64,000 nt of DNA from Candidatus Melainabacteria bacterium (GCA_023250155.1 JAHFBG010000005.1:89057-153056), one strand, 5' to 3'; counted from the first letter of the stretch, positions 11,680 to 42,071 are shown. Numbers and translations: made by a program. Notes: a model not told the origin generated them from the sequence alone.

Positions 11680-11684
11680 GCCTC

Positions 11685-14908: not shown

Positions 14909-15018
14909 TTTTACAAAAGCCTTACAATGTGTTATAAGTTATACAACTTAGAAAAAGTAAGCTATGCAATATACAACAATTTCTGTTAGGTGATTTCTAA
15001 CATTTAATAACCCAATTC

Positions 15019-23076: not shown

Positions 23077-23185
23077 AAGCATCTTACACTCCATATTGCC
23101 TTCCCTCAGCCCCTCCGACCATTAACTAGGCGTTAACAGTTCCCGTCGGGACATTCGGGAATGGCAATATTAAATCGTGCTTTTT
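23077..23185 (+). repeat. Copy B of the nested-hairpin repeat element
   Basis: About 85% identical to copy A. Differences are compensatory in stems (agtgcc/ggcact becomes attgcc/ggcaat; ctccc/gggag becomes ttccc/gggaa). Confidence 0.5.
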
Positions 23186-23251
23186 GTATTTAGTTATTTA
23201 GCCATCATTGACTTTTTAACAGACCCTGTAATTTGTTGTATATTAATATCC

Positions 23252-24346
23252 ATGAAAGCAGTTATTCTAAGCGGTGGTTCTGGACAAAGATTAGCACCAC
23301 TTACAAACACAATTACAAAACAACTTTTACCTGTTGCAAATAAACCAACATTGTTTCACATATTAGATCTAATCAAAGAAGAAACGCCAATAAAATCTAT
23401 CTGTGTCGTTGTCAGTGAAGAGTATGGTCATAAGGTAAAAGAAACCCTCTTGAACTCAGAACATGCAAAATACTTTGAGTTTGATTTTGTGTTTCAAGAC
23501 AAACCCCTTGGTTTAGCTCATGCTGTGCAGATTACAAATATGCATATGGGTGAAGAACAATTTCTTATGTTTCTTGGAGACATCTTAATAAACAAAGGAG
23601 AGCTAAAAGCTGCCTATGAACAGTTTATAAAAAACAAACCTGAAAGTCTTGTTTTAGTAAAAGAGGTTGAAGACCCAAGACCATATGGAATAGCTGAAGT
23701 TACAAATGGCAAAGTCACAAAGCTTGTAGAAAAGCCTCAGGACCCTAAATCTAATTTATGCTTGTCTGGAATTTATCTTTTTAATCCTTCCATTTTTTAT
23801 GCTATTGCAAATATAAAACCTAGCTATAGAGGTGAACTTGAAATAACGGATGCTGTGGATTTTCTAATACAACAAAAAAACACAGTAGAGTACTACATTA
23901 TAAAAAGCTGGTGGTTTGATGTAGGTACACCTGAAAACATGTTAAAAGGTAATGAGGTTTTATTAAATAACATTTCAAATACCATTAATTCAAAACTTAA
24001 CAATACTGTCAAAATACAAGGAAAAGTATCGATAGATCAAAATGTCATCATTGAAGATTCTGAAATAGTAGGTCCTGTAATCATTGCAAAGAATGCTCAC
24101 ATAAAGGGTTGTAAGATAGGTCCTTATGTAAGCCTTGGTGAAAGTGTCACATTAAAAAACACAAAAGTTGAAAACTCAATAATTAGAGAAAACTCTAGGG
24201 TAAAAAACTTCACAAGGATAATTTCAAATAGTGTTCTTGGAAAAAATGTAGAATTGGCTCTTGAAGACAATACTCAAGCAGTAAGCGGAAACAGCAAAAA
24301 GGTAAAAGTAATTTTAGGAGATGATACAAAATGCACATCATTGTAA
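23252..24346 (+). CDS. Sugar-1-phosphate nucleotidylyltransferase, RmlA-like long form with C-terminal left-handed β-helix
   Basis: MKAVILSGGSGQRLAPLT…KQLLPVANKP N-terminus, G1P-thymidylyltransferase-like. C-terminal hexapeptide-repeat region. Likely true start at Met 23252, not 23177. Confidence 0.7.
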   Translation: MKAVILSGGSGQRLAPLTNTITKQLLPVANKPTLFHILDLIKEETPIKSICVVVSEEYGHKVKETLLNSEHAKYFEFDFVFQDKPLGLAHAVQITNMHMGEEQFLMFLGDILINKGELKAAYEQFIKNKPESLVLVKEVEDPRPYGIAEVTNGKVTKLVEKPQDPKSNLCLSGIYLFNPSIFYAIANIKPSYRGELEITDAVDFLIQQKNTVEYYIIKSWWFDVGTPENMLKGNEVLLNNISNTINSKLNNTVKIQGKVSIDQNVIIEDSEIVGPVIIAKNAHIKGCKIGPYVSLGESVTLKNTKVENSIIRENSRVKNFTRIISNSVLGKNVELALEDNTQAVSGNSKKVKVILGDDTKCTSL

Positions 24347-25314
24347 CTGGTGGTTTAGGTTTTATTGGTTCAAACTTCATTAGACATCTCATCAATGAGA
24401 ATAAAGATATTTTCATTACAAATATTGATGCCCAGACTTATGCAGGAAGGCTTGATAATTTACAAGATATTGAAAAACACAAGAACTATCAGTATTTTAA
24501 GGGAAACATTCAAGACTATGATTTCATTCAAAATATAGTTAGAACTTATAAGCCTGATGCCATAATTAATTTTGCTGCTGAAACCCATGTAGACAGAAGC
24601 ATTACAAAAGCACAACCTTTTATTGAAACAAATATTATTGGCACTCACACGCTGCTTGAAGTAGCACTTAAAGAAAAGCTAAAAAAATACATCCAAATAA
24701 GCACTGATGAAGTCTATGGCTCAATTAATCCACCAGACAAATTCACTGAAACAAATTTAATCAAACCAAATAGTCCATACTCAGCCAGCAAAGCCTCAGC
24801 TGATCACTTAGTCAGAGCATACAATAAAACATATGGCTTAAACACTGTAATCATAAGATGTTCAAACAATTTTGGTCCTTATCAATTCCCTGAAAAAGTG
24901 ATCCCATTATTTATTTCCAATGCTATAGAAAATAAAAAAGTCCCTGTCTATGGTGATGGTTTAAATGTAAGAGATTGGATTTATGTCTTAGATTTCTGTT
25001 CAGCTATTTCACTGATTCTTGAAAAAGGGAAATCTGGTGAAGTCTATAATGTAGGTGGTGATTATGAAACAACAAACCTAGAACTCACAAAAACTATTCT
25101 TAAAAGACTGGAAAAAACAGAAGAATTAATAAACTATGTAGAAGATAGACTAGGACATGATCGTAGATATGCCATGGACACTACAAAAATCAGCACAGAA
25201 CTTGGCTGGAAGAAAAAACACGATTTTAATGAAGCACTAGATTTAACTATAGATTGGTATAAGAAAAACACAGTGTGGGTTGAAAGAAGAACTAAAGCAT
25301 CTGTAGTTAGATAA
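24331..25314 (+). CDS. rfbB: dTDP-glucose 4,6-dehydratase
   Basis: TGGLGFIGSNF Rossmann motif, STDEVYG, YSASKASADHLVRAY catalytic YxxxK. Overlaps the upstream gene by 16 nt. Confidence 0.85.
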   Translation: MHIIVTGGLGFIGSNFIRHLINENKDIFITNIDAQTYAGRLDNLQDIEKHKNYQYFKGNIQDYDFIQNIVRTYKPDAIINFAAETHVDRSITKAQPFIETNIIGTHTLLEVALKEKLKKYIQISTDEVYGSINPPDKFTETNLIKPNSPYSASKASADHLVRAYNKTYGLNTVIIRCSNNFGPYQFPEKVIPLFISNAIENKKVPVYGDGLNVRDWIYVLDFCSAISLILEKGKSGEVYNVGGDYETTNLELTKTILKRLEKTEELINYVEDRLGHDRRYAMDTTKISTELGWKKKHDFNEALDLTIDWYKKNTVWVERRTKASVVR

Positions 25315-25511: not shown

Positions 25512-27509
25512 CTAAGCTAAAACAGCTTTAGTGATCTTACGCCCATCTATTTTTCGTTTCAAGAGCTTTTCAACAACTGGTTTAGATGGTTTATACATAG
25601 AAGATTTTATGAAGTTTTTATAAAGCAACACGGTGGATAAAAGAAAGATAAATGTTTGATTCTCTCTGTGACTTATTTGATTTTTTGGTGTATTTTTTAA
25701 TTTTTCAATTAACTTAAGTACAAAATCCGAATTTATAAAATCAATCTTTTTTAACTCATTCTCAGATAATACACAAGACAGATAATCAATCGGTTTATCA
25801 GTGTGTAAAAAAGCAGCTGCATCTGGTGATCTATATGCATGTTTAGATTTTTCTATAACGCTCTTTGGAATACAACCTTTAAAAGCTTGCTTTAGAATGT
25901 ATTTTTCTTCTACATCATTTCTTAACTTTAAATCTATAGGCAAAGAACATGCAAAATTTACAACATTTGGATCTAAAAATGGCAACCTGCTTTCTACACC
26001 ATGTGAAAAGCTCATCCTATCACCCTGGGTAGACAAAAGATATCCAGCTAACATTGTTCTTGACTCTAAATACTGAGACTTTTGTAATTTTGTTAAGTGA
26101 TTAAACTCATCCTTATGCAAATCTAAATATTTTTTTAAACAGTTAAGTCCATCTCCCAAAGAAGATAAGATACGAGTATTAAAGCTAGAACTATTAAATC
26201 TTGTTTCATGCGAAAACAACCCAGGTATTTTTTCATCTACTGATCTATCATAAAGAGCCATAAGTTTAGGAGCATTTTCCTGAAAGAATTCCTCATAAGG
26301 ATTTAATATTTGTAGACGAGATTTCTTTTCTTCACTAGATAAACTATTCCATGAGATTCTTAATAATGTTTCTTTAAATAAATCATATCCTAAAAAAAAC
26401 TCATCTGATCCTTCGCCAGTTAAAACGACTTTTATTCCTTCTTTTTGTACCATTTTAGATAAAAGATACATTGGAACAAAAGCTGTTCTAAAGACAGGTA
26501 CCTCTGCATGCCAAAGTGCACTTAAAAAAGATTCTCTAATGTGATCATTGGTAACACACAAACTACTATGCTTTGTACCCAGATATTCGCTGACTTCTTT
26601 TTGATATTTTGACTCATCAAATAGAGGATCTTCAAAAGCAATTGAAAAAGTCCTTACAGTGTGATTTGAAAGCTTTGTAGCAAGGTATGTTGTAATCGAA
26701 GAATCAATACCCCCACTAAGGTAAGTACCAACTTCTACATCACTCCTCAAACGGATTTTGACACTATCTGACAGAACTTCTCTGGTTCTTTCAATAGCTT
26801 CATCTTCAGAGCCAGAAAAAGTAGATGTTTTAAAATCCAGAAGATAATAAGGTTCAATTTTTGCAGAGCCTTTTTCATCTACTAAAACATAGCTTCCAAT
26901 TGGTACCTGATGAATATTTTTATATACAGTTTGATCTGGCAATGAGGTCCAGATAGTAAATGCTGAGCGTAATTGATCAAGATCAAAATCTATTTCTATA
27001 TTCTTATGAGGAATAAATGATTTTATTTCAGAAGCAAAATACCATTGTCCATTAAGATTTGTATAATATAACGGTCTTTCACCAAACTTATCTCTTACTA
27101 AATAAAGCTTACATTCTTTTTTGTCATAAATTGCAAATGCAAAGCCACCGTTTAGTTGAATAAATGACTTTTCGCGCCAAGCTATAAAAGCATTTAATAC
27201 AACTTCTGTATCAGAGTTCGTTCTAAATACATAACTAAGTTCTTCTAACTCGCTCCTTAGTTCTTTATAGTTATAAACTTCACCACTATAGACTATCCAG
27301 TAACGCTCAGAAACATCTGAAATAGGTTGTTGACCTGAAATTAAATCAATAATACTAAGCCTGGCTGTTCCAAAAGCAACTCTATCATCAAAGTAATATC
27401 CCATTTCATCTGGGCCACGATGAGTGATCATAGAGAGCATTTCACAAATCAACTCTGGATAAGTCTCTGGACTTTCATTAATATTATAAAATCCAACTAT
27501 TCCACACAT
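25512..27509 (-). CDS. Asparagine synthase (glutamine-hydrolysing)-like amidotransferase, WbpS-type in glycan clusters
   Basis: MCGIVGF N-terminal nucleophile, class II glutamine amidotransferase domain, SGGIDSS PP-loop. Confidence 0.8.
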   Translation of the reverse strand: MCGIVGFYNINESPETYPELICEMLSMITHRGPDEMGYYFDDRVAFGTARLSIIDLISGQQPISDVSERYWIVYSGEVYNYKELRSELEELSYVFRTNSDTEVVLNAFIAWREKSFIQLNGGFAFAIYDKKECKLYLVRDKFGERPLYYTNLNGQWYFASEIKSFIPHKNIEIDFDLDQLRSAFTIWTSLPDQTVYKNIHQVPIGSYVLVDEKGSAKIEPYYLLDFKTSTFSGSEDEAIERTREVLSDSVKIRLRSDVEVGTYLSGGIDSSITTYLATKLSNHTVRTFSIAFEDPLFDESKYQKEVSEYLGTKHSSLCVTNDHIRESFLSALWHAEVPVFRTAFVPMYLLSKMVQKEGIKVVLTGEGSDEFFLGYDLFKETLLRISWNSLSSEEKKSRLQILNPYEEFFQENAPKLMALYDRSVDEKIPGLFSHETRFNSSSFNTRILSSLGDGLNCLKKYLDLHKDEFNHLTKLQKSQYLESRTMLAGYLLSTQGDRMSFSHGVESRLPFLDPNVVNFACSLPIDLKLRNDVEEKYILKQAFKGCIPKSVIEKSKHAYRSPDAAAFLHTDKPIDYLSCVLSENELKKIDFINSDFVLKLIEKLKNTPKNQISHRENQTFIFLLSTVLLYKNFIKSSMYKPSKPVVEKLLKRKIDGRKITKAVLA

Positions 27510-27514
27510 GATTT

Positions 27515-28549
27515 CTAAATCTCGCTAAGTGCTAGCCCAACCTTATCCATTTGGTCTGTTAATTCGGAGAAATCAGGGATTTCAGTTACTTTTTTAAGAC
27601 CTAGCTCTCTATCCATCAATCCATATCTAACCTGTTCTGCAACTTCAAATTCATATGCATGAAATTTGTGTTTTTTATAGTGAATGGCAACTCCTAAATC
27701 ATTCAGCAAGCAGTTGCTGGAATTTCTTCCAGTATCTTGTGGTTTAATCCAACCTAAGTCTTTAATTGCAGTAATGATATCTTCTTCACCTATTGAAAGA
27801 GTAAGCATAGGATTAATGATAGTTACAGAGTTTCTATTTGCATTTGAAATTAAACTATCTTTGATAAAGAAAAATTTACTTGAACCTTGTCCAAATAAAC
27901 TATTATATTTCTCTAACAATGGCTTCTTTAATTGTTCTCTTTGTATTAAATTCATATTTAGCATAGAAGCATTTTTTGGCACCTGCCCACCAATATAACC
28001 ACCAGCTACAATTGGAGCTTCATGCAATAGTGCAAGCTTTATCATATAGTTGTTTATTAAATTTATACATGAATTACAAACAGAACTCACTCTTTTAATA
28101 GCAGCTTGATTTTGAACACCACCAGTTGTGATACTTGTTTTATACATATTCATCATAAAACTAGGTGCGGGTTTAAACATTAAAAAATCTACCCCCAAAG
28201 CTTCAGTAACTATGTAACAATTTTTTACCGCCTGTGAAGACATAAAATCATTGTCAATGGTAACTGCCAAACAGTTTAAATTATAGTGTTTAGTAAGATG
28301 CATTAAAGTATATGTAGAATCTTTACCACCACTATAAGCTACAATACAGTCATATTCACCTTTTCCTCTACTTTTCTCAATTTCAGCTTCCATTAAAGCT
28401 TGTAGTTGATTCCTCTCAGACTCAAGATCTTTTGAATCAGGGGTTTCTTGGCAGTACTCGCAAAGTCCTTTTTCATTAAAACTTATATTCGGAAAAGTCT
28501 CTGGAATAGTACATCTAATACAGCGTTGTAACTCACTGGCTTTTTTCAT
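27515..28549 (-). CDS. N-acetyl sugar amidotransferase (PP-loop ATPase, WbpG/WbuX-like)
   Basis: N-terminal Cys-x2-Cys…Cys-x2-Cys zinc ribbon (CIRCTIPETFP…CEYCQ) followed by AYSGGKDSTY PP-loop. Confidence 0.65.
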   Translation of the reverse strand: MKKASELQRCIRCTIPETFPNISFNEKGLCEYCQETPDSKDLESERNQLQALMEAEIEKSRGKGEYDCIVAYSGGKDSTYTLMHLTKHYNLNCLAVTIDNDFMSSQAVKNCYIVTEALGVDFLMFKPAPSFMMNMYKTSITTGGVQNQAAIKRVSSVCNSCINLINNYMIKLALLHEAPIVAGGYIGGQVPKNASMLNMNLIQREQLKKPLLEKYNSLFGQGSSKFFFIKDSLISNANRNSVTIINPMLTLSIGEEDIITAIKDLGWIKPQDTGRNSSNCLLNDLGVAIHYKKHKFHAYEFEVAEQVRYGLMDRELGLKKVTEIPDFSELTDQMDKVGLALSEI

Positions 28550-28805
28550 TTGTTTTATCCTTTACAAATTTAGTTAATGCATTTAAAGATCTTATAGAAT
28601 CTGATAGCAGTTCCTCATCTATTACTTTAATCTTATATTTCTTTTCAAGAAACAGAACCAACTCTACACAACCAAAAGAATCAATAACTCCAGACGAGAA
28701 AAGATCTGTATCTGGCGTAACATTTACACCATCAAAGTTAAAGAGGAATTGTTTTGTCAAATAACTTTCAATCTCTTTTTTTGCTTCATCTGTTTTAATT
28801 AGCAT
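28533..28805 (-). CDS. Acyl carrier protein-like
   Basis: 90 aa. DLFSSGVIDSFGCVELVLFLEKKYKIKV matches the ACP DSL/phosphopantetheine-site helix II pattern. Confidence 0.55.
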   Translation of the reverse strand: MLIKTDEAKKEIESYLTKQFLFNFDGVNVTPDTDLFSSGVIDSFGCVELVLFLEKKYKIKVIDEELLSDSIRSLNALTKFVKDKTNEKSQ

Positions 28806-28836: not shown

Positions 28837-29559
28837 CTATACCCACATATGGTAGTAATACTCTTTTTTCCTTAGTTTTGTAAATCCAAGTCGATTAAAA
28901 AAATTCATTGAAACTAAATTATCTTCATAAAACCTAGTGGCTAAAGTGGTTACAGTAGTGTTGTCCTTTATTGATTTTATATTGTCTTTGACTAATTGCA
29001 AAGGTGCAAAACCAATACGATAAGTTGGTTTAACTAAAAGTTCTTGTAGAAAAAGTAAATCATCGCTTGTAATTCGTAAGAAATGAAACCCTTCTAACTT
29101 ATTTTCTTTAGAGAAAAGTCCTAATGAGTATTTTGGGTAGGTATTAGCCAAATGCTTGAGTATTGTTAGCTTATGCTCTAGAACTGTTTCTTTTTTAATT
29201 TTTATATCTTTGGAATATCTGTTTGGTGGATAAATATCTAAAAGTTCTTTAACTTCATTCCAATTAGAATTGTCAAGCTCTTTAACCTTAAATAAAGATG
29301 GAATGTTTTCTATGTTCTTCCAAACCTGATTTATATCTGCTTCAACCTCATGTATAACACCTACATAAGAAAAACCATTTAGTTCCACAGGTTCTAACGA
29401 ACTAAGAACTATAAGATTATAATTATTTTGTTGTGCAGCTTCTGAAATAAGTTTCTCATCTTCTTTTTTAAGATTTCTAAAATCTTCTAAAGTCAAATTA
29501 CCAACCTTTGGTGCAATAACCCCTGAATCAAACGAATTTTCTTCAATTTTAAACTTCAT
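28837..29559 (-). CDS. Hypothetical protein, possibly GNAT-fold N-acyltransferase
   Basis: 240 aa. C-terminal ATRFYEDNLVSMNFFNRLGF resembles the GNAT motif. Adjacent to ACP and amidotransferases. Confidence 0.3.
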   Translation of the reverse strand: MKFKIEENSFDSGVIAPKVGNLTLEDFRNLKKEDEKLISEAAQQNNYNLIVLSSLEPVELNGFSYVGVIHEVEADINQVWKNIENIPSLFKVKELDNSNWNEVKELLDIYPPNRYSKDIKIKKETVLEHKLTILKHLANTYPKYSLGLFSKENKLEGFHFLRITSDDLLFLQELLVKPTYRIGFAPLQLVKDNIKSIKDNTTVTTLATRFYEDNLVSMNFFNRLGFTKLRKKEYYYHMWV

Positions 29560-29831: not shown

Positions 29832-30752
29832 TTACAAACCTATCTGACTTGAAATCACATATAAAGGACGTTTCTTTACTTCAGAAAAAGTCTTACCAAG
29901 ATAGATTCCTATAATTCCAAGAATAGTTATTATTACACCGGACAGGAAATACAGTGAAACAAATAAGCTTGTCCAACCTGTTACAGGAGATCCAAGAAAT
30001 ATAGCTCTAAGTAAAATATAGGTACCATAAACAAATGCAATAAAAGACAGACTAAAGCCAAGCATAGTAACAACTCTTAGTGGTTTGTCTGAATAAGAAA
30101 TAATTGTCCCAATAGCTAGATGAATCATCTTTCCTAAAGTATAGGTACTAGAACCCTCAGTTCTTTTACCATGGATCACATCAATACTTGCAGTTGAAAA
30201 CCCTGTCCATTGAACAAGTCCATGAATGTATCTGTTTTCTTCTCGAATCTGTTTCAAGTTTTCTACAACCTTCCTTGAAAGTATCCTAAAAGCACCAACT
30301 TCTGAATCACAATTCATATCGGTTAAATAATTAAAAACTTTATAAAATAACCAGTTTTGAAAAACCTTTATTAAAGAGTCTTTTCTTTTTCCACGTCTTG
30401 CTAAAACCACATCAAAACCTTCTTTAGCTTTGTTATAGAGCTTTATAATCTCTTCTGGGTTGTCTTGTAAGTCACAGTCTATAATAACAACCCATTCTCC
30501 CTTACATGTATCAAGACCAGCAGTAATTGCATTATGCTGCCCAAAATTTCTTGATAGTCTTATGCCTTTTACTCTGCTGTCTTTTTTAGAACTTTCTATT
30601 ATTGATTCCCATGAATTATCTGGGCTACCATCATCTATTAAAAGTATTTCAAAATCATTAGTAATCTTGCTCAAAGTCTCAATGAGTTGAGCCACTAAAA
30701 TATCTACCATCTTCTTTGCTTTATATACAGGGCTAACTACACTTATATCCAT
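29832..30752 (-). CDS. Polyprenyl-phosphate glycosyltransferase, GT2 (ArnC/GtrB-like) with C-terminal TM helices
   Basis: VVSPVYKA…IDDGSPD…LSRNFGQ…IDCDLQD motifs. Two C-terminal TM segments. Confidence 0.75.
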   Translation of the reverse strand: MDISVVSPVYKAKKMVDILVAQLIETLSKITNDFEILLIDDGSPDNSWESIIESSKKDSRVKGIRLSRNFGQHNAITAGLDTCKGEWVVIIDCDLQDNPEEIIKLYNKAKEGFDVVLARRGKRKDSLIKVFQNWLFYKVFNYLTDMNCDSEVGAFRILSRKVVENLKQIREENRYIHGLVQWTGFSTASIDVIHGKRTEGSSTYTLGKMIHLAIGTIISYSDKPLRVVTMLGFSLSFIAFVYGTYILLRAIFLGSPVTGWTSLFVSLYFLSGVIITILGIIGIYLGKTFSEVKKRPLYVISSQIGL

Positions 30753-30765
30753 AAATAGTTTCTAC

Positions 30766-31932
30766 CTAACTTGCTAACTCCTTACTTAATAGAACTTTTC
30801 CTCTTAAGAATGATCCTATACTATCAATTACATAATCTTGTTCTTCCTCTGTCATATCATTATAAAAGGGTAATCTAAGAAGTCTTCTACTAATATTCTC
30901 AGTAACAGGCAAATCTCCTTCTTTAAATCCTAATTGTAATCCCATTGGTGATGAGTGGAGAGGGACATAATGAAAAACACTTGTTATTCCCTGCTGTTTT
31001 AAATGGTTAATCAAATCATTTCTCTGTATCTCATTTTCAAGCATAATATAAAACATATGATAGTTTGACACACAATCGTGAGGAATAACTGGTAGTTGAA
31101 TTTTTCCTTCTTTTTCTAAATCGTGCAACCCCTTATAATATCTATCAAAAATATTTTTACGAATGCTGTTTATCTTATCCATATTTTCAAGCTGTGCATA
31201 TAAAAAAGCAGCCAATACATCTGAAGGAAGATAAGAGCTACCAATATCTACCCATGTATACTTATCTATTTCACCCCTAAAAAACTTGCTTCGATTTGTT
31301 CCTTTTTCTCTAACTATTTCAGCACGTTCTATAAATCTTTCGTCATTTATTACTAAAGCTCCACCCTCACCACAAATAAAATTCTTAGTTTCATGAAAAC
31401 TATAACAACCAAATGTTCCTATAGTTCCTAAGAAATTATTCTTGTACATAGCATTAACACCTTGTGCAGCATCTTCAACTACATAGAGATTATGCTTCTT
31501 TGCTATGTCATTAATTTTATCCATGTTACAGGATACTCCTGCATAATGCACAGGAACAATCGCTTTAGTTTTTGATGTGATTTTTTCTTCAATTAAACTT
31601 TCATCTATGTTTTTTGTGTCAAGCCTTATATCTACAAAAACAGGTTTTGCTCCACGCAGCATAAAAGAATTTACTGTAGACACAAAAGTATAAGAAGGTG
31701 CTATCACTTCATCTCCCTCTTTTAAATCTATAAGAATAGAAGCTAATTCTAATGAATGTGTACATGAGGTAGTCAATAAAACTTTCTTTGCACCAAATAC
31801 CCTTTCCATAAGGTCATGGCATTTTTTAGTGTACAAACCATCACCTGAAATCTTTCCACTTAAGACAGAACTTTTAATATATTCAAGTTCAAGTCCTGTA
31901 AATGATGGCTTATTAAATGGTATTTTTTTCAT
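30766..31932 (-). CDS. DegT/DnrJ/EryC1/ArnB-family PLP-dependent sugar aminotransferase
   Basis: Typical family length (388 aa) and motifs, including a conserved Lys region (SFHETKN). Confidence 0.85.
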   Translation of the reverse strand: MKKIPFNKPSFTGLELEYIKSSVLSGKISGDGLYTKKCHDLMERVFGAKKVLLTTSCTHSLELASILIDLKEGDEVIAPSYTFVSTVNSFMLRGAKPVFVDIRLDTKNIDESLIEEKITSKTKAIVPVHYAGVSCNMDKINDIAKKHNLYVVEDAAQGVNAMYKNNFLGTIGTFGCYSFHETKNFICGEGGALVINDERFIERAEIVREKGTNRSKFFRGEIDKYTWVDIGSSYLPSDVLAAFLYAQLENMDKINSIRKNIFDRYYKGLHDLEKEGKIQLPVIPHDCVSNYHMFYIMLENEIQRNDLINHLKQQGITSVFHYVPLHSSPMGLQLGFKEGDLPVTENISRRLLRLPFYNDMTEEEQDYVIDSIGSFLRGKVLLSKELAS

Positions 31933-31934
31933 AC

Positions 31935-33962
31935 TTATACTTTACTACTTAATAAAGAATCAATCTCATATAGTCTAGCTTTTGCTTTATCACTAAAGGG
32001 GTTTAACCGTAACATAATACGAAGTGTTTGTTTAGCTTCTTCATACATCTTATTTTCTACAAATATTCTAGCAGCTTGATAATACAATTCCTCTCCCGTT
32101 ACAAAAAGAGCTTTATCATAAGAAATACTTTTTTCTAAATAGGATAAAGCTTTATCATTATTGCCTATTTTACTATAAAACAACCCAGCAAAAAGATATG
32201 GAAAGGATGACTTCGGATTTAGTTTGATATAGTTTTCTACTAAAGGTATAGCTTCATTATATTTTTTGGTTCTTAACACAATTTCAATAAACGTAGTATT
32301 GTAAGAAAGTTGAAACTTAGGATTATTGATTATAGCCTGCTTTGTAGCTTCCCAAGCCATATCCCACTTGTTTACTCGTACCAAGAAGCTTGCAATTTCA
32401 TTCCATCCAATATAATTACCTTTTACCACTAATGCAGAATCAAAAGCCTTACTTAGATCATCAAAACGTTTTGTTTCTACAAGAAAATTAAATATTAATC
32501 TATAAACCAAGTAATTATATTGCATTTGCATTGGTCCATAGCTAATTGCAAGACTAGGTTTAAGATCTAGGAATTTATCAAGCCAATCTTCAATAATAGA
32601 ACCTTTACTTAAAAAGCCAGATAGTCTATCTAATTCATTTTGTTTTCTTGCTTGCTCTATAGCAAGCTTAACCCATAATGGCTTATTCCATACAGGGGCT
32701 TCTTTAACACAATATACAAACTGATTTAGAAAATCTTTGCTAGATGGCATATAGTATAAAGTTCTACTAATCAAAAAACAAAATAAAGAAAGACAAATCA
32801 ATAAAACAAGCTTACGTTTAACTATTGATTTTGTTAACAATCCAAATAAAGCCAAAGTTAAACCTAAACTTGGAATGTATAAATATCTTAAAGCCACTAT
32901 TGAAAACAAAGGAATTATTTGAATTACTAATAACATAGAAATTAAAAACCATATTATACCTATGCTAAATAAAGGAATTGTTCTAAAAAATACTATTGCA
33001 AAAATTATTAAAGCAATTACAATACACTGGCAAAATATACTATATGGGCTCAATAAAGAATCACCTACCATATACCACTCAGCAGCACTGTCAACTAACC
33101 CGTATGGACAGAAAAATAGTTTTAAATAATGAACAAGTAATTGAGGAGAAAACCAAACTGCTCTAAATAAGATATCTTTCATTGAACCTATTTCCATCCA
33201 CCTGGTTACTAGATTTGCACTTTCTATCAAACCACCATTAGTCGCTAGATACCTTACTAAAAAATAAACAGGATAAATTGAAATTATTGAAAATAATAAT
33301 GAGAGATTTCTTTTTGTGATCAATTCTTCTCTCTTTAAAAAACAGAGAATAAAAAACAACAAAATAGGAAAAAATAAAAAATACTCTACAGACATTATCC
33401 CAAGAAGAAAAAATATATTACCTACTAACATTAGTAAATAACTTTTATATGTAATATTTCTATCTGCTACCTTTAAGTAAAGTAAAAAATAACTTAATAT
33501 AAAACCAAATCCCATTATCCCTGGACCAACTACAAGCCTAGTTAACTGTTGTTGATTAACAGGGTGTATTGTCCACAAAGAAACAATTAAAACTGATATT
33601 AATTTACTGCTAGTAATCCGACAGAATAAAATTGTAGCTAATACACAAACGATACATTGTGCAAAATATTGATAAAGATGAAAACCAAATGGAAAGGCAT
33701 TTTTACCAAAGAAAAAATTGATCAAAAAACACTGCAAACAATGAACTGGCATATAATGATCAGATACCATCCCTGTAACAGAATAAAAGGATTTAATCAC
33801 TAATTGAAAGTCCTTTGTCTGTGGAGTAATTACAAAGGAATCATCACCCCATGCTTGTCCAAAATAAATTGATTGATAATATAAAAAGCAAAACAATAAA
33901 GATGGAATGAGAAAATAATATTTTTCCAATACTCTCAAAATATAGCTTGTAATGATTTTCAT
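31935..33962 (-). CDS. Polytopic membrane protein with C-terminal TPR repeats, TMTC/PMT-like GT-C candidate
   Basis: WGDDSF first-loop acidic motif. VWFSPQLLVHYLKLFFCPYG block paralogous to the 1004 and 12653 ORFs. TPR C-terminus. Confidence 0.55.
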   Translation of the reverse strand: MKIITSYILRVLEKYYFLIPSLLFCFLYYQSIYFGQAWGDDSFVITPQTKDFQLVIKSFYSVTGMVSDHYMPVHCLQCFLINFFFGKNAFPFGFHLYQYFAQCIVCVLATILFCRITSSKLISVLIVSLWTIHPVNQQQLTRLVVGPGIMGFGFILSYFLLYLKVADRNITYKSYLLMLVGNIFFLLGIMSVEYFLFFPILLFFILCFLKREELITKRNLSLLFSIISIYPVYFLVRYLATNGGLIESANLVTRWMEIGSMKDILFRAVWFSPQLLVHYLKLFFCPYGLVDSAAEWYMVGDSLLSPYSIFCQCIVIALIIFAIVFFRTIPLFSIGIIWFLISMLLVIQIIPLFSIVALRYLYIPSLGLTLALFGLLTKSIVKRKLVLLICLSLFCFLISRTLYYMPSSKDFLNQFVYCVKEAPVWNKPLWVKLAIEQARKQNELDRLSGFLSKGSIIEDWLDKFLDLKPSLAISYGPMQMQYNYLVYRLIFNFLVETKRFDDLSKAFDSALVVKGNYIGWNEIASFLVRVNKWDMAWEATKQAIINNPKFQLSYNTTFIEIVLRTKKYNEAIPLVENYIKLNPKSSFPYLFAGLFYSKIGNNDKALSYLEKSISYDKALFVTGEELYYQAARIFVENKMYEEAKQTLRIMLRLNPFSDKAKARLYEIDSLLSSKV

Positions 33963-34915
33963 TTTGTTGCAACTATAAGTAAAGAACTACCAAAAGGAAA
34001 CCGCATACCAATTTTAATGAGTATTGTTTCAAGATTCAATATTACTTCAAAAACTGTATTTAAAATAGTATTTAACTTAAACTCAGAATAAAGATCAAAT
34101 TTACCATTTAGCAATTTCAACCTCATCCTGGATAGTGTAATAAAAGGTAGTAAAAATGCTACAAAAGATGTCGAAGTTAGAACTTTAAATCCAGCATTTT
34201 CTATCTTAGTTTTTAATTCATTGATTCCATATCGCCTCTTGTGAAAGCTTACTTCATCAACCTTACTCCATAAGAATTTATGTTGTGGAACTGTTAAAAT
34301 CAACCCACCACCAGGCTTAATTGCTTTGTACATTTGCTCCAAAACTTCTTCATCCTCTTTAATATGTTCTAAAACATCAAACGCTCCCATTACATCAAAC
34401 TCTTCTTTAAATGGTATTAATCTAGCATCCATTTGAAAGAACTTAGCCTTAGTTCTTTTCTTAGCAAACTCCAATCCTTCTTTAAATATCTCACTTCCAT
34501 ATAAATCTAAATCAGGAAAAGCTTTTTCAATTCCAGAAAGAACAAAACCTGTTCCACAACCTACTTCAAAGAAATCTGTTGCATGTGGAAAATATTTACC
34601 TAAAGTCCATACTATTAACTTGTTTCTACTACAAAACCAAAAATTAGATGCTTCCAAGCTTGCTAGATTTTCAAAATAACCAGAAGCAAAACCTTCATTA
34701 GCTTGTGAAGAATCATTTGAAAAGAAAAGAAAACCGTTATTGCTTTGTGGCTCATATCCACAAGCTGGACAAATCCAATTATTTCTTTCAAAGTCTTTTT
34801 TACAACTTATACAAACCTTCATATTAGTTTTATCTTCTACCCCAAACTTAAACTTCACTAATAACATCAAATCCTTTAAAGCAATAAGTTTTTTTATTGT
34901 ACCAAGAATACTCAT
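33959..34915 (-). CDS. SAM-dependent methyltransferase with N-terminal zinc ribbon
   Basis: CISCKK…CPACGY zinc ribbon, EVGCGTGF motif I, FDVLEHI. True start may be the internal Met (MKVCISC). Confidence 0.6.
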   Translation of the reverse strand: MSILGTIKKLIALKDLMLLVKFKFGVEDKTNMKVCISCKKDFERNNWICPACGYEPQSNNGFLFFSNDSSQANEGFASGYFENLASLEASNFWFCSRNKLIVWTLGKYFPHATDFFEVGCGTGFVLSGIEKAFPDLDLYGSEIFKEGLEFAKKRTKAKFFQMDARLIPFKEEFDVMGAFDVLEHIKEDEEVLEQMYKAIKPGGGLILTVPQHKFLWSKVDEVSFHKRRYGINELKTKIENAGFKVLTSTSFVAFLLPFITLSRMRLKLLNGKFDLYSEFKLNTILNTVFEVILNLETILIKIGMRFPFGSSLLIVATK

Positions 34916-34979
34916 AATTACTAATTTATAGTTCGTGGTTCATGATGAACTATGAACTATTGATGAAGCTATTAAGATA

Positions 34980-36725
34980 TTAATTCCTCTCATATACAGC
35001 ATAAATATCAGCACCATTACTTGATGAGTCATTGACTTGTATCTCAGTCTTTATATGATAATTCTTTAATAAAAAAGAGTTTAACCAATTTAAAAATAAC
35101 TTCATCTTTTCAAGATGCCAGTCTTGTAGATGTACAGAATGAGGTAAAACTATAATCTTTGGCGGCATGCTCAAAAAGTCTTTCTTTACAAGCTCAATAC
35201 TATTATCAATGTATTGTTTATATGAAAAATACTCAGAAACTGCAGTAGTAGAACACAACCTTTTCATATAAACATACATAGTAATTGGAAAATATACAGC
35301 TTGGGCTTTACTGTTCGGCAAATCCAATATATAAACTGTATCTTTTTTATTTGGTATAAAACTATTAATTAAATCAGCAACAATAGGTACATAGTATACC
35401 CTGTTTGGATTCTTTTCTTTTCTTGTGACAGGATCTTCAAATGATTCTGGCTGATAAAACATATTCAATTTAACACTTTCACTAATTTGGTTTAATAATG
35501 CAGGAGTCACTAAATATAATCTATGTATAAAAAAGACAATAACAAGTCCAAATACTAAAATCTTTAAAAATTTGACTGAAGGAAAATAGTTAAAAATATC
35601 TTGAATTAACAAGATAAGAAAGATTGACACTGGTACCCATACTAAGATGTAGTAATAAGCACCATAACCACCAGGCGCTATGACTGCACAAATATTTCCA
35701 AAACTCCATATACTTATAAGTACAATAAATATATGAGAAGGATTGCTTGAACGAGTAAAACAAGATCTAAGTCCTATAAAAACCATGCCAAACAAAGATA
35801 TACCAAGCAATAAAAGATTGCTTAATATAGATTGTGCATTGTGGACAGTTGAAGAAACATCTCTTCTTAAAAACATATGAATGCTAGAAACAAATGATTG
35901 AGCTGATTTTACAGCATCATCACTATAGACTCCTACATCAAAACATCTATGCCAATAAGCCACTAAATCTACTTTGTAGAGATAGATTCCTAGATTAAAT
36001 AACAATAAACCAAGCAACATTCCACCAAACAAACAAAACAAATTGCTACTGTTTTTCTTAATTAGCTCTCTTTTAAAGATTGTCAAATACACTAACCAAC
36101 ACATATAAGCAATGAGCAATACACCACCACTAGCTTTAAACATAATAGGCATAGAAGCAAATAGACCTGCAAGCACAGATAGTAAAAAAGCGTTTGTACC
36201 CTGTATAGCTTTAAGTAAAGAAAAAAATGACAACAAAGAAAATAAAACAATAAAATACTCTGCTTCCAATGTAAAAGCAGATTCAAATTCGTGTTTCAAT
36301 CCCCATCCTCCAATGGGTGTTAGCTGAACTAGTATCCAAACTAATACAGCTAATCCTACATAAAACTCACTGGTAAACAAAGTCTTGCATATTAAAAACA
36401 TTAAAATACCAATCATTATTACAATAAAGGTTTGAATAAAATGAACTACAATAATAGACCACGTACCAAATCCAAACAGTTTCAATACCAATGCATAAAC
36501 TAAAATCAACAAAGTCAAACAAGGTCTTTCTGGTGGATGAAAATGTAATCCATTTAAATAGTGTTGCCCCCAAATAAAATAAAAACCTTCATTTTGACTG
36601 CTGCAAAGAACTGAGAGATTAAATGGTAACTTTAGTAAAAAGTAAAACACCAATGAACCAATAAAAATATAAGTACCTAATCTATTGTAGAAATCTTTAT
36701 TTAAAGCTGGTTTGAACATATTCAA
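34980..36725 (-). CDS. Polytopic membrane protein (about 12 TM), possibly a GT-C-like glycosyltransferase
   Basis: 581 aa, highly hydrophobic, in glycan locus. No clear DE motif (QNEGFY), so family is uncertain. Confidence 0.35.
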   Translation of the reverse strand: MNMFKPALNKDFYNRLGTYIFIGSLVFYFLLKLPFNLSVLCSSQNEGFYFIWGQHYLNGLHFHPPERPCLTLLILVYALVLKLFGFGTWSIIVVHFIQTFIVIMIGILMFLICKTLFTSEFYVGLAVLVWILVQLTPIGGWGLKHEFESAFTLEAEYFIVLFSLLSFFSLLKAIQGTNAFLLSVLAGLFASMPIMFKASGGVLLIAYMCWLVYLTIFKRELIKKNSSNLFCLFGGMLLGLLLFNLGIYLYKVDLVAYWHRCFDVGVYSDDAVKSAQSFVSSIHMFLRRDVSSTVHNAQSILSNLLLLGISLFGMVFIGLRSCFTRSSNPSHIFIVLISIWSFGNICAVIAPGGYGAYYYILVWVPVSIFLILLIQDIFNYFPSVKFLKILVFGLVIVFFIHRLYLVTPALLNQISESVKLNMFYQPESFEDPVTRKEKNPNRVYYVPIVADLINSFIPNKKDTVYILDLPNSKAQAVYFPITMYVYMKRLCSTTAVSEYFSYKQYIDNSIELVKKDFLSMPPKIIVLPHSVHLQDWHLEKMKLFLNWLNSFLLKNYHIKTEIQVNDSSSNGADIYAVYERN

Positions 36726-36805: not shown

Positions 36806-38020
36806 ATGTCTAAAAGCTTAAAAGTCTTAATGGTAAACTACGAATTCCCTCCTATAGGTGGTGGGGGCGGTACTACCACACGTTTCCTAGCTAAGTATAT
36901 GGTAAGACTTGGATTAGATGTTTCTCTGATTACATCAAAACCAGGAAATGACAACACTCTAATTCATCCTGATGGATTTAAAATTTATTATGTAGGTCCT
37001 ACAAGGACCAATCACACTACTACCTATATATCAGAGCTAGCACGTTTCATGGGAACAACTATTTTCTATGCAAAAAATCTTATTAAAACCATAAATCCAG
37101 ACATCATACATTGTTTTTTTGCAATACCCTGTGGAGCATTTGGGCTTTATTGTAAAAAGACTTTCAATATTCCATATATAACTTCTACCCTGGGTGCTGA
37201 TGTTCCTGGTTTTAATATAGGAGATAAAAGATTAAATGCTTATCACTTTTTAACACAATCTCTTACAAAATCAATCTGGAACAATTCATCTTTTATAGTA
37301 GCAAACAGCTCATCACTAAAAGAACTCTGTGAAAAGTTTATGCCAAGCCTTTCATTAAAACATCATTCAATCACTAATGGCGTTGATACAGAAGTGTTTT
37401 ACCCAAGCTCATTACACAACACACCTGAAAACAATATCGTAAAACTACTATTCGTTAGTCGATTAAGCTCACAGAAAGGTGTTGAAACATTAATCAAAGC
37501 ATGTGGAATATTGCTTCAACGAAAAGTTTCAAACTTCAAATTAACTATTGTTGGTGATGGTCCATTAAAAGATAGAATGTTTTCATTGATTAATGAGTAT
37601 AAATTAAAAGATAAAATTGATTTCCTGGGATGGGTTAGGCTTGAAGAACTACCAGATATTTACAGAGACTCTAATGTTTTTATTTTGCCATCTGTTATGG
37701 AAGGTATGCCTAGCGTAGTTCTACAAGCCATGGCTTGTGGGCTTCCCATCATAGCTTCTAAAGTAAAAGGTTTTGAAGAGGTCTTAGAGGAAAATGTAAA
37801 TGGTTTATTAGCTGAGTATAATGATGAAATAGCTTTTGCTAATGCCATTGAACAATTAATAAAATCACCTGACTTATTAAACAAAATGTCTAAAAACAGT
37901 TTTGAAAAGTCTAAGCAGTTTTCATGGAAAACAATTGCTGAAAGATATTTAGAGCTTTATGAAAAGGCTTTATACACTACTATAAAGTCAAAAGAAGTGG
38001 CACCTGCTATTTCTTCCTAA
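36806..38020 (+). CDS. Glycosyltransferase family 4 (GT-B)
   Basis: N-terminal EFPPIGGGGG loop. C-terminal E..G.P..EAMA-like motif (MEGMPSVVLQAMACGLPIIAS). Confidence 0.75.
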   Translation: MSKSLKVLMVNYEFPPIGGGGGTTTRFLAKYMVRLGLDVSLITSKPGNDNTLIHPDGFKIYYVGPTRTNHTTTYISELARFMGTTIFYAKNLIKTINPDIIHCFFAIPCGAFGLYCKKTFNIPYITSTLGADVPGFNIGDKRLNAYHFLTQSLTKSIWNNSSFIVANSSSLKELCEKFMPSLSLKHHSITNGVDTEVFYPSSLHNTPENNIVKLLFVSRLSSQKGVETLIKACGILLQRKVSNFKLTIVGDGPLKDRMFSLINEYKLKDKIDFLGWVRLEELPDIYRDSNVFILPSVMEGMPSVVLQAMACGLPIIASKVKGFEEVLEENVNGLLAEYNDEIAFANAIEQLIKSPDLLNKMSKNSFEKSKQFSWKTIAERYLELYEKALYTTIKSKEVAPAISS

Positions 38021-39032: not shown

Positions 39033-40115
39033 ATGAAAGAAAAAATGCTTAAGTATCTTTGTTGTCCTGAATGTAGCTCTAATATAGAGTTAGCTAGACA
39101 TAAAGGAATTGACTCAACAAATCATATCACTGAGGGTGAATTAGTTTGTACTGGATGCAAAAATACTTATCCCATTATAAGTGGCGTGCCATTTTTCTGT
39201 TTAAATACAGATGATAAAACAGTAGACTTAAATAGAAAGAATTTTGCCAGTGAGTGGAACTACTTTACATCCTCAATGGGAGATAAAAATGAACAGCTTG
39301 CAAAAGATGAATTAGAAAGTTATTTTTCTCCATTTGTTCAGTTTAAAGATTTAGAAGATAAGAGTGTTCTTGAAGGTGGTTGTGGTGGTGGAAGATTAGT
39401 TTATGCAGCAGCAAAATACTCAGGGGCAAAAGAGATAATAGGCGTTGACTTATCAAATGCAGTAATAACAGCTTTTAAAAACACCAGACATCTCCCTAAT
39501 GTTTCAATTATTCAGGCAGATATTACAAATCTACCTTTTAAAAAAGATAAAATGTTTGATTTTATTTATTCTGTTGGTGTATTACACCACATGCCAAATC
39601 CATATTTAGGTTTCAGCTCTTTAGTAGAACATTTAAAAAAAGATGGCAAGATCCTTGCCTGGGTATATGGAAAAGAAGGAAACTCACTATACATAAACTT
39701 TGCAGACCCAATAAGGAAACTAATCACTTCAAGGTTTCCATTTAAAGTAAATCTTTACTTATCATGTTTTATATCACTTATCGTATGGGGCATCATATTA
39801 GGTTTTTATTCTCCACTCAATTTAATATTGAAAGAAAAAAATACTAATAAAGTCTTACCTTTTAATGAATACTTTAACTATTTTAGAAAAAGAGGATTTA
39901 AAGATTTTTGGAGAACTGTTTTTGATAAAATGGTTCCAACAATTTCATACTATATTTCGCATGAAGAATTTAAAACTTGGTTTGAAAAAAGCAATCTAGA
40001 ATATGAAACATATTTTCGAAATGGGCATAGCTGGACTGGGATTGGAAAATCTGCTGTAGGTCTGAGTCGCGACTCAGACCTACAGCAACATGGGTTTAAA
40101 ACAACGTATAAATAA
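39033..40115 (+). CDS. SAM-dependent methyltransferase with N-terminal Trm112-like zinc-ribbon
   Basis: LKYLCCPEC…CTGC zinc ribbon, VLEGGCGGGRL motif I, VGVLHHM. The C-terminal tail is encoded by a 34-nt palindrome. Confidence 0.6.
   Translation: MKEKMLKYLCCPECSSNIELARHKGIDSTNHITEGELVCTGCKNTYPIISGVPFFCLNTDDKTVDLNRKNFASEWNYFTSSMGDKNEQLAKDELESYFSPFVQFKDLEDKSVLEGGCGGGRLVYAAAKYSGAKEIIGVDLSNAVITAFKNTRHLPNVSIIQADITNLPFKKDKMFDFIYSVGVLHHMPNPYLGFSSLVEHLKKDGKILAWVYGKEGNSLYINFADPIRKLITSRFPFKVNLYLSCFISLIVWGIILGFYSPLNLILKEKNTNKVLPFNEYFNYFRKRGFKDFWRTVFDKMVPTISYYISHEEFKTWFEKSNLEYETYFRNGHSWTGIGKSAVGLSRDSDLQQHGFKTTYK
40054..40087. repeat. 34-nt perfect palindrome (17-bp arms, no loop), GC-rich, inside the 3' end of the methyltransferase CDS
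   Basis: gctgtaggtctgagtcg|cgactcagacctacagc read directly. Confidence 0.6.
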
Positions 40116-40254
40116 ACGGTGCTAATGCTGAACCTTCAGTAAAAACAATTAAAGCACCAAGCAAAACTAAAAAAACAATAATAGGAGTTAACCACCATTT
40201 TTTTCTTGTCTTTAAAAATTCCCAGAACTCTGAAACGATTGAAAGATTGCTCAT
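40096..40254 (-). CDS. Small membrane protein (52 aa), SxtK/DUF5989-like, not in the ORF track
   Basis: Reverse-strand ORF translates to MSNLSIVSEFWEFLKTRKKWWLTPIIVFLVLLGALIVFTEGSALAPFIYTLF. This matches the conserved small partner of carbamoyltransferase/SGNH gene sets. Confidence 0.5.
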   Translation of the reverse strand: MSNLSIVSEFWEFLKTRKKWWLTPIIVFLVLLGALIVFTEGSALAPFIYTLF

Positions 40255-40260
40255 AATTTC

Positions 40261-41628: not shown

Positions 41629-42055
41629 AGTTTAACTTATTGAATGATTCTTTTTTTCTTTTTATCCAGTATGTTTGTAACTCTTTATTAAATCTTAGAT
41701 TTAAAGAATCTTTTGAAGTCATTTTATTTAAGAGACCAAGTGGTGTAACCACAACATAAAATAAAAGACATAAAATGACTCTTGTCATAACAGCACCAAT
41801 AATAAGTCCTACTGCCATCCAGATTTTTTGAATGGGTTTAAGAATAATAGGAATTAACAATCCTGATAGTATAAAAAATAATGACAAAATAAAGAAATAA
41901 ATATAATGCTCTTTATGTCTCCACCACAGGCTTCCACCAATGAAGCCAAATACAACACCAACTACTATTCCAAACTCTCTTAACTCTTTCTTTCCACTTT
42001 TTATATTTTTAATTTCTTCTAAAATCATCTTCTTTTCCTTCTTAGTCACGATCAA
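41612..42055 (-). CDS. SxtJ-like small membrane protein
   Basis: 147 aa, 3 TM. Sits between carbamoyltransferase and SGNH genes as in SxtI/J/K-type modules. Confidence 0.4.
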   Translation of the reverse strand: MIVTKKEKKMILEEIKNIKSGKKELREFGIVVGVVFGFIGGSLWWRHKEHYIYFFILSLFFILSGLLIPIILKPIQKIWMAVGLIIGAVMTRVILCLLFYVVVTPLGLLNKMTSKDSLNLRFNKELQTYWIKRKKESFNKLNYERQF

Positions 42056-42071
42056 TCGTATCCCTCCTATA

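Follow-up and report, generated by a model that had tools for sequence, protein, structure and literature searches.

A nine-gene run in a Candidatus Melainabacteria genome that joins a WecE orthologue, a GtrB/ArnC-type glycosyltransferase and a GT-C protein with a tetratricopeptide tail

Melainabacteria are a non-photosynthetic sister group of the cyanobacteria, and to our knowledge their envelope glycobiology is essentially unstudied. Here, we describe a run of genes within a 64,000-nt stretch of a Candidatus Melainabacteria bacterium (GCA_023250155.1, JAHFBG010000005.1:89057-153056), hereafter the window, whose coordinates count from its first letter. At the heart of the run lie a WecE-type aminotransferase, a family 2 glycosyltransferase (GT2) and a membrane glycosyltransferase of the C-type fold (GT-C) with a tail of tetratricopeptide repeats (TPR). 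Our literature searches turned up no work on envelope glycosylation in Melainabacteria and no characterised module of WecE, GtrB and GT-C. Related loci are numbered L001 to L018, L001 being a second assembly of the window organism; the neighbourhood comparison covered the window and 12 further distinct loci carrying a member of the TPR-tailed GT-C family (13 in total), whose named sources are all Melainabacteria or Caenarcanales metagenome-assembled genomes (MAGs). Domains were typed with Pfam and NCBIfam models at their curated cutoffs, and sequence searches of the PDB, an AlphaFold2 (AF2) model, Foldseek and hhalign were further used.

The gene run and its enzymes

As the original prediction had it, the three genes are contiguous and co-oriented: open reading frames (ORFs) occur at exactly 29832..30752 (306 aa), 30766..31932 (388 aa) and 31935..33962 (675 aa), tightly packed on the minus strand, which the original prediction had left unstated, and their length and the strength of their matches in a sequence of 31% GC exclude a chance origin. 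The trio is thus present, but the description as a three-gene module was too narrow, since the genes form the centre of a nine-gene co-oriented run on the minus strand, from 36725 down to 25512, that also holds a second GT-C, a methyltransferase and a downstream tailoring cassette with an acyl carrier protein (ACP) (Table 1). Read along the minus strand, the run comprises the 581-aa GT-C, the methyltransferase, the 675-aa protein, the aminotransferase, the GT2, a 240-aa protein, the ACP, a PP-loop enzyme and an AsnB-like enzyme. The gene of the 581-aa protein and the methyltransferase gene are separated by 64 nt, the methyltransferase gene overlaps that of the 675-aa protein by 4 nt, and spacers of 2, 13 and 272 nt follow up to the gene of the 240-aa protein. 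The RmlA and RmlB genes, on the plus strand, converge on the downstream end of the run. Because of the tight spacing, co-transcription is likely; by a consensus scan, the run has no terminator-like site between its genes, the one match on the minus strand falling within the 581-aa gene, and a similar scan for promoter-like sites, uninformative in itself, gave no excess and fewer sites than in shuffled sequence.

Table 1. Features of the run and of the converging sugar-nucleotide genes, in window coordinates.
Feature	Coordinates	Strand	Basis
Second GT-C of 581 aa, lacking TPR, with C-terminal alpha/beta domain; heads the run	34980..36725	-	AF2, Foldseek
Class I S-adenosylmethionine (SAM) methyltransferase with N-terminal CxxC...CxxC zinc ribbon	33959..34915	-	Pfam Methyltransf_11/12/25
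GT-C membrane domain of the 675-aa protein, residues 1-410, about 11 transmembrane (TM) helices	32733..33962	-	
Codons of D40-D41, DD motif, first extracytoplasmic loop of the 675-aa protein	33840..33845	-	
Helical-repeat/TPR C-terminal domain of the 675-aa protein, residues 411-675, putatively periplasmic	31938..32732	-	
WecE orthologue, 388 aa	30766..31932	-	NCBIfam WecE models, PDB 4piw
GtrB/ArnC-type GT2 polyprenyl-phosphate glycosyltransferase, 306 aa, two C-terminal TM helices	29832..30752	-	Pfam, PDB, NCBIfam
240-aa protein, weakly GNAT-like C-terminal half; candidate N-acyltransferase	28837..29559	-	Pfam FR47 and NCBIfam RimI, both below cutoff
Acyl carrier protein	28533..28805	-	Pfam PP-binding
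PP-loop ATPase, WbuX/N-acetyl-sugar amidotransferase type	27515..28549	-	NCBIfam TIGR03573 (below cutoff), PDB 8wex
Glutamine-dependent asparagine-synthase-like amidotransferase; last gene of the run	25512..27509	-	Pfam Asn_synthase, GATase_7
Long-form glucose-1-phosphate thymidylyltransferase RmlA; likely true start 23252	23177..24346	+	NCBIfam TIGR01208
dTDP-glucose 4,6-dehydratase RmlB, predicted to make the WecE substrate	24331..25314	+	NCBIfam TIGR01181

The aminotransferase matches Pfam DegT_DnrJ_EryC1 (E 5.7e-94), confirming a sugar aminotransferase of the DegT family; its proposed ArnB type, on the other hand, had to be abandoned, since the ArnB model PRK11658 gave 232.8 bits against a cutoff of 631, whereas both WecE models were passed (PRK11706, 605.4 bits, cutoff 375; TIGR02379, 565.2 bits, cutoff 434.85). 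Escherichia coli WecE (PDB 4piw) is the best solved relative, with 470 bits and 59% identity over residues 3-371 (about 370 aligned positions), and the SFHETKN motif with the lysine that binds pyridoxal phosphate is kept between the two; an ArnB structure reached 180 bits in the same type of search. Judged by homology, the enzyme is a WecE orthologue, a dTDP-4-amino-4,6-dideoxygalactose transaminase, and its predicted product is dTDP-4-amino-4,6-dideoxy-D-galactose (the nucleotide form of 4-amino-4,6-dideoxygalactose, Fuc4N), the galacto configuration following from orthology. Moreover, the RmlA-like and RmlB genes announced at 23252..25314 both pass their NCBIfam cutoffs (RmlA-long TIGR01208, 346.6 bits against 320; RmlB TIGR01181, 468.9 bits against 365). 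Since neither RmlC nor RmlD was found among the window ORFs, WecE is the only consumer of dTDP-4-keto-6-deoxyglucose visible in the window, and a dTDP-4-amino-4,6-dideoxyhexose derivative as the donor, as originally proposed, is well supported.

The GT2 matches Pfam Glycos_transf_2 (E 1.1e-28), and its alignment with Synechocystis GtrB (PDB 5ekp; 227 bits, 37% identity) spans the whole protein and takes in both C-terminal TM helices, which bears out the predicted ArnC/GtrB-type enzyme with a C-terminal TM anchor. The IDxDLQD motif is retained, and the hydropathy peaks fall within residues 224-292. ArnC (PDB 9bhc) is also matched over the full length, with 147 bits; the protein stays below the equivalog cutoffs of the NCBIfam models PgfS (229 bits) and ArnC (PRK10714, 179.3 bits, cutoff 529), and we rejected identity as an ArnC orthologue: it is a homologue of ArnC but not an equivalog, with GtrB as the closer relative. 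By these alignments the GT2 is assigned as a polyprenyl-phosphate glycosyltransferase of the GtrB/ArnC type, with a sugar specificity that its sequence does not reveal.

The 675-aa protein was correctly labelled as a GT-C protein with a TPR tail. In Pfam and NCBIfam it matches TPR repeats only, in the last ~120 residues (TPR_8 above cutoff), with no match in the membrane part; a PDB sequence search likewise returned TPR proteins only, and PDB sequence and profile searches (675-aa and 581-aa sequences and the A2 profile) gave no relative of the membrane domains. By fold, the best matches are protein O-mannosyltransferases (PMTs), accompanied by TPR structural matches. Right after TM1, an AWGDD motif at residues 37-41 is nearly invariant in 42 family sequences, W38, D40 and D41 being invariant or nearly so (D40/D41 at least 90% conserved), and it occupies the position of the DD/DE catalytic motif of TMTC, ArnT and PMT (PMC7801869). 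This motif in the first extracytoplasmic loop argues that the 675-aa protein is itself catalytic. The helices of the model and the alternating clusters of lysine and arginine (residues 1-15, 115-119, 168-172, 210-218, 327 and 378-384) fit a topology of 11 TM helices with the N-terminus inside and the C-terminus outside, on which the TPR domain would face the periplasm, and the conserved polar residues (H69, H133-P134-N136, R142, E193, R267, Q274, H278, W296 and RYxYxP 359-364) would all be outward-facing.

The homologue family of this protein is small (about 44 sequences, 37-70% identity), and its few named members are Candidatus Melainabacteria MAGs. Against a library of cluster representatives, the family found 9 clusters at E<=1e-30 and 3100 at E<=1e-3; the distant relatives that we scanned are membrane-plus-TPR proteins, two of which (27% and 26% identity; E 2e-18 and 3e-18) score above the cutoff of Pfam PMT_2. 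Among 42 family members, none matched PMT_2 or DUF1736 at E<=1, and one PTPS_related match was the only hit to a GT-C family in Pfam.

The 581-aa protein was modelled with a predicted local distance difference test (pLDDT) score of 88.8, and Foldseek matched the model to AglB (3waj), AftA, ArnT (5ezm) and ALG3; 5 of 30 members of its family match PMT_2. It is, on this model, a second GT-C, and the two GT-C families are at best distant relatives, with a probability of only 78% in global hhalign comparison. This second GT-C may pass sugar from the same lipid donor to another acceptor.

With regard to the remaining genes, homologues of the methyltransferase occur within the module in L002, L004, L006, L009 and L016; a TylM1/DesVI-type sugar N-methyltransferase was considered and found unsupported, as the PDB search gave generic class I matches only. 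The 240-aa protein stays below cutoff with both Pfam FR47 (E 0.0037) and NCBIfam RimI (E 6e-4) and has no PDB relative in our searches, and it is unrelated to the WbqC proteins that hold the same position elsewhere (hhalign probability 0.2%). Its homologue is conserved directly after the GT2 in L002, L009, L014 and L016, and the ACP (PP-binding, 22.8 bits, cutoff 20.8) is conserved in the same four loci. The PP-loop enzyme reaches E 1.4e-37 with TIGR03573 (130 bits, below the cutoff of 203) and E 2e-6 with the N-acetyl sugar amidotransferase 8wex, and the AsnB-like enzyme matches Asn_synthase (E 3.7e-81) and GATase_7. In terms of domain content, these four genes look like an amine-tailoring set.

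Conservation of the neighbourhood

The neighbourhoods are conserved across loci whose proteins are only 41-70% identical. A WecE homologue (70-79% identity) lies no more than two genes from the TPR-tailed GT-C in 10 of the 13 loci (the window, L002, L003, L004, L005, L006, L009, L011, L013 and L014), and in L016 it is found about 3.3 kb away on the other strand. The GT2 comes directly after WecE in seven of the 13 (the window, L002, L004, L009, L011, L014 and L016) and three genes further on in L006, while L007 has the order TPR-tailed GT-C, WecE, methyltransferase, PhyH, methyltransferase, GT2, WbqC and formyltransferase.

The genes that accompany the GT2 fall into recurrent sets. The GNAT-like/ACP/PP-loop/AsnB cassette is present in the window, L002, L009, L014 and L016, with the GT2 between WecE and the cassette; WbqC and a Formyl_trans_N protein are found instead in L006/L007, where the GT2 sits between WecE and this pair, and in L011, whose formyltransferase belongs to the same cluster, upstream of the TPR-tailed GT-C, and whose tailoring genes include a sulfotransferase and an APS kinase. 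An ATP-grasp enzyme occurs in L013, and in its place L005 carries a 408-aa ORF with no annotation. The operon begins with the 581-aa GT-C in the window, L002, L009 and L016; the family of this GT-C is not in the module in L004, L006 and L014 and is not adjacent in L011, and these four loci keep the TPR-tailed GT-C, WecE and GT2 together.

The closest relative is L002, in which an RmlB homologue (90% identical) stands at the equivalent end of the run and, as in the window, on the strand opposite to it. Identities to the window proteins are 78% for WecE, 70% for the TPR-tailed GT-C, 70% for the PP-loop enzyme, 65% for the AsnB-like enzyme, 65% for the methyltransferase, 56% for the ACP and 55% for the GNAT-like protein. 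The GT2 of L002 (11756..12676), only 46% identical, belongs to the other of two GT2 subclades, which suggests a replacement of the GT2 in an operon that is otherwise syntenic.

As a separate observation, in L012 (9053..12013) the TPR-tailed GT-C is not beside WecE or a GT2 and is directly preceded by a UbiA-family prenyltransferase. UbiA-type enzymes make polyprenyl-phosphoribose donors for GT-Cs in mycobacteria, Pseudomonas and Citrobacter (PMC11127046), and in L012 the family may be fed by a different lipid-donor route.

A proposed lipid-linked amino-sugar route and its alternatives

The module is best described as a route from a polyprenyl-phosphate-linked sugar to a GT-C, with a WecE-derived dTDP-amino sugar as input and a TMTC/TfpW-like TPR transferase as the final enzyme. 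Melainabacteria are so far the only group in which such a module has been found; its components are all of known families, and the finding overturns nothing. We regard as evenly balanced the proposition that these genes form the conserved centre of a Melainabacteria-specific operon for envelope glycosylation that follows Gtr/Arn-type logic, in which a sugar is placed on a lipid carrier and then used by a GT-C.

In such an operon, strong homology would have RmlA and RmlB make dTDP-4-keto-6-deoxy-D-glucose and the WecE orthologue convert it to dTDP-4-amino-4,6-dideoxy-D-galactose, the chemistry of both steps being deduced from the relatives. The later steps are suggested by gene context: the amine would be tailored, with the methyltransferase and the GNAT-like, ACP, PP-loop and AsnB-like proteins as candidates and with formyltransferase and WbqC in some relatives; the GT2 would load the tailored amino sugar on polyprenyl phosphate at the cytoplasmic face; a flippase would move the lipid-linked sugar across the membrane; and the 675-aa GT-C, possibly along with the 581-aa GT-C, would transfer the single sugar to an extracytoplasmic acceptor. 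We hold with moderate confidence that the GT2 product is polyprenyl-P-Fuc4N(R). By analogy with the TPR-tailed GT-Cs TfpW and TMTC1-4, which glycosylate proteins, the acceptor is more likely a protein or polymer than lipid A, in line with the protein or glycan acceptor of the original prediction. A more specific version, which we consider less likely than not, is that a dTDP-using GtrB/ArnC-type GT2 makes polyprenyl-P-Fuc4N(acyl/formyl), a lipid-linked donor not known before, with which a TMTC/TfpW-like GT-C O-glycosylates Melainabacteria envelope proteins.

The Arn pathway (ArnB, ArnA, ArnC, ArnD, ArnE/F and ArnT) modifies lipid A with 4-amino-4-deoxy-L-arabinose (L-Ara4N). The likeness to it comprises a sugar-nucleotide 4-aminotransferase, a GT2 that loads polyprenyl phosphate and then a GT-C, together with the full-length homology of the GT2 to ArnC and, in relatives (L007 and L011), a Formyl_trans_N enzyme like the N-terminal domain of ArnA, whose formyltransferase step precedes ArnC. 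The position of the GT2 among amino-sugar genes and the formyltransferase of the relatives are the strongest support for an Arn-like scheme, in which an N-blocked amino sugar is proposed as the GT2 substrate. The ArnB-ArnC-ArnT logic of the original prediction holds as far as the enzyme types, the conserved neighbourhoods and this formyltransferase are concerned, and fails in that the aminotransferase is not ArnB and the window has no ArnA, ArnD or ArnE/F equivalents. Furthermore, the sugar here would be a dTDP-6-deoxyhexose (RmlA/RmlB, WecE) instead of a UDP-pentose (Ugd, ArnA), the GT-C is TPR-tailed and closer to PMT/TMTC than to ArnT, and the equivalog cutoffs of both ArnB and ArnC are missed. 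By these comparisons the module is not a member of the Arn pathway; gene context lends support to a putative Arn/Gtr-like logic.

Three-component Gtr-type systems include GtrA/GtrB/Gtr*, CsbB/GtcA/YfhO and GacI/GacL (PMC11127046). They share with the present module a GtrB-type GT2 with a small C-terminal TM anchor and a GT-C that uses a polyprenyl-P-monosaccharide outside the membrane, whereas here the search for a GtrA-like flippase gene was negative, the operon also contains genes for making and tailoring an amino sugar, the donor is predicted to be a dTDP-sugar and not a UDP-sugar, and one operon holds two GT-Cs.

The final enzyme resembles the pilin D-arabinofuranosyl transferase TfpW of Pseudomonas aeruginosa, a 646-aa protein with 11 TM helices, a DDx motif and a TPR domain in the periplasm (bioRxiv 10.1101/2020.04.19.049825). 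By architecture, both are bacterial GT-Cs of similar size with about 11 TM helices, DDx in the first periplasmic loop and a C-terminal periplasmic TPR domain, and a polyprenyl-P-monosaccharide donor, used by TfpW, is predicted here; they differ in that tfpW adjoins the gene of its pilin acceptor, no such gene being adjacent here, and in that the TfpW donor comes from a UbiA/DprE-type route and not from a GT2. A similar layout is found in the eukaryotic O-mannosyltransferases TMTC1-4, which modify cadherins (PMC7801869): an N-terminal GT-C domain of about 11 TM helices whose first external loop (EL1) carries a DD motif, and a C-terminal TPR array on the non-cytoplasmic side, while R-Y-x-Y-x-P before TM10 of the 675-aa protein resembles the TMTC ERxxY motif. 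In contrast to TMTC, the present protein has no Pfam DUF1736 match, most other TMTC motifs (SHKSYRP, KE(T/Q)xxT, DW) are not recognisable, the predicted donor is an amino sugar and not dolichyl-phosphate mannose (Dol-P-Man), and the host is bacterial.

With the enterobacterial common antigen (ECA) of E. coli, the run shares an orthologous WecE (59% identity) that is likewise supplied by RmlA/RmlB. In ECA synthesis, cytoplasmic WecF uses dTDP-Fuc4NAc on lipid II linked to undecaprenyl diphosphate (Und-PP), and no equivalents of WecD, WecF, WecA or Wzx/Wzy were found in the window.

Several points weigh against a shared lipid-linked amino sugar. L012 and L015 carry the TPR-tailed GT-C without WecE in the stretch available, and L017 has the 581-aa type without WecE. 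In L018, the gene just upstream of a 581-aa GT-C homologue encodes a GT2 that is 59% identical to that of the window, and no WecE lies within 9 kb of the pair, so the GT2 may serve the non-TPR GT-C, handle a different sugar, or do both. The GT2s divide into two subclades with about 45% identity between them, each of which occurs beside WecE. Characterised GtrB-type enzymes take UDP-sugars (PMC11127046), and a dTDP-sugar donor would lack precedent for an enzyme of this type. No GtrA or ArnE/F-like flippase occurs in the window, with no candidate between positions 25 and 37 kb and no small multi-TM ORF among the genes of the run; of the small multi-TM ORFs of the window, an SxtJ-like one (41612..42055) is the only one between larger genes, and another runs off the window end at 63439. 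Domains of an ArnD-like deformylase and of an ArnA-like decarboxylase are not found in the large window ORFs. Finally, genes for one surface glycan can cluster without having a sugar in common.

The last point leads to the alternative that survives best, which we nevertheless consider somewhat doubtful: the genes would serve a shared glycan with different sugars, the GT2 being an ordinary GtrB that makes polyprenyl-P-glucose or the product of another UDP-hexose for one or both GT-Cs, and WecE separately providing dTDP-Fuc4N(acyl) to a cytoplasmic Leloir glycosyltransferase such as the family 4 enzyme (GT4) at 36806..38020. It would account for GtrB as the best solved match of the GT2, for the UDP-sugars taken by known enzymes of this type, for the WecE-free pair in L018 and for the missing Arn-typical deformylase and flippase, and the GT4 divergently adjoins the operon in the window, L002 and L001. 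However, the GT4 is not kept beside WecE in L004, L006, L009, L011 and L014, and at least six independent loci place the GT2 between WecE and amine-tailoring genes. Cytoplasmic assembly would, moreover, have to proceed in a window with no phosphoglycosyl transferase to prime it, no Wzx or Wzy, no ABC exporter and the GT4 as its single Leloir-type enzyme, so that a conventional Und-PP repeat-unit route is not evident.

A true Arn-like modification of lipid A or the lipopolysaccharide (LPS) core, with an amino sugar on the lipid A phosphates altering surface charge and the TPR domain as a scaffold only, would fit the gene order of aminotransferase, GT2 and GT-C and the formyltransferase of the relatives. 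We consider it improbable, since the aminotransferase falls short of the ArnB equivalog cutoff and the GT2 of the ArnC one, the ArnA decarboxylase, ArnD and ArnE/F are not found in the window, the amine, if still N-acylated, would be non-cationic, the best fold matches are protein O-mannosyltransferases, and the two TPR-tailed GT-Cs that have been characterised, TfpW and TMTC, modify proteins. Equally hard to credit is the idea that the 581-aa GT-C uses the GT2 product, leaving the TPR protein another lipid-linked donor or another pathway role, for although this GT-C heads the operon in four loci and its type is directly paired with the GT2 in L018, the four loci without it in or next to the module keep TPR-tailed GT-C, WecE and GT2, and the invariant DD motif speaks for catalysis by the TPR protein.

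The wider locus and its significance

Besides the run, the window holds further genes of a similar kind. Nine large multi-TM proteins of GT-C or GT-C-like type, in four groups, lie at 1004..17382, 31935..36725 and 43886..47270: TPR-tailed paralogues (1004..3406, 12653..14908 and 31935..33962; profile E 8e-30 and 3e-44), DUF2298-type paralogues (3467..5749, 5803..8121 and 8121..10421), a PMT_2 pair (45534..47270 and 43886..45565, 37% identical to each other) and the 581-aa GT-C as the remaining group. A second pairing of GT2 and GT-C is formed by a 297-aa GT2 with C-terminal TM helices (47260..48153), whose stop overlaps the start of the PMT_2 protein at 45534..47270; it is 24.5% identical to the GT2 of the run and 74-80% identical across relatives, and in L006, L009, L015 and L018 it is always followed by a PMT_2-type protein, homologous to that at 45534..47270 or to that at 43886..45565.

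A conserved block at 40096..43889, present also in L002, L015 and L018, comprises a carbamoyltransferase (42072..43889), the SxtJ-like protein (41612..42055), a 455-aa protein and a 52-aa single-TM ORF, a content that suggests O-carbamoylation of a surface glycan. The region 10558..14908 holds, in close linkage, a radical-SAM/SPASM enzyme, a membrane protein of the LPG_synthase_TM family and a TPR-tailed GT-C paralogue, with a 4-nt overlap between the last two, and the LPG_synthase_TM protein is a possible candidate lipid flippase for these systems. Two large, highly charged soluble paralogues of 787 and 939 aa (15019..17382 and 18935..21754) are 35% identical over 610 residues and match no Pfam family. 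About 23 kb from the module, 57255..60224 encodes a 989-aa protein with seven He_PIG (cadherin-like/Ig) repeats (E 7e-90); since TMTCs glycosylate cadherin domains, it is a candidate acceptor, speculatively and by analogy.

The glycosylation island adjoins recF-gyrB and a conserved 597-aa single-TM protein (49130..54695 in the window; also L003-L007 and L014). In relatives, the TPR-tailed GT-C is 2-5 genes (about 4-6 kb) from the 597-aa protein, always with AsnB-like and B12/radical-SAM genes between them, and in the window about 15 kb of extra genes are inserted between the two. Given this variable gene content, the recF-gyrB site behaves like a variable surface-glycan locus.

In brief, the locus gives a first look at the cell-surface chemistry of Melainabacteria, at a site by recF-gyrB that is unusually rich in GT-Cs and varies between genomes. 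If the coupling of WecE, GT2 and GT-C is real, dTDP-sugars would join the donors of GtrB/ArnC-type enzymes, the periplasmic glycosyl donors would gain a new lipid-linked amino sugar, and the very large uncharacterised family of bacterial TPR-tailed GT-Cs (about 3100 clusters at 50% identity) would receive its first donor assignment. Should envelope proteins indeed be the targets, TMTC-type protein glycosylation would have a counterpart in prokaryotes, built on an amino sugar instead of mannose.

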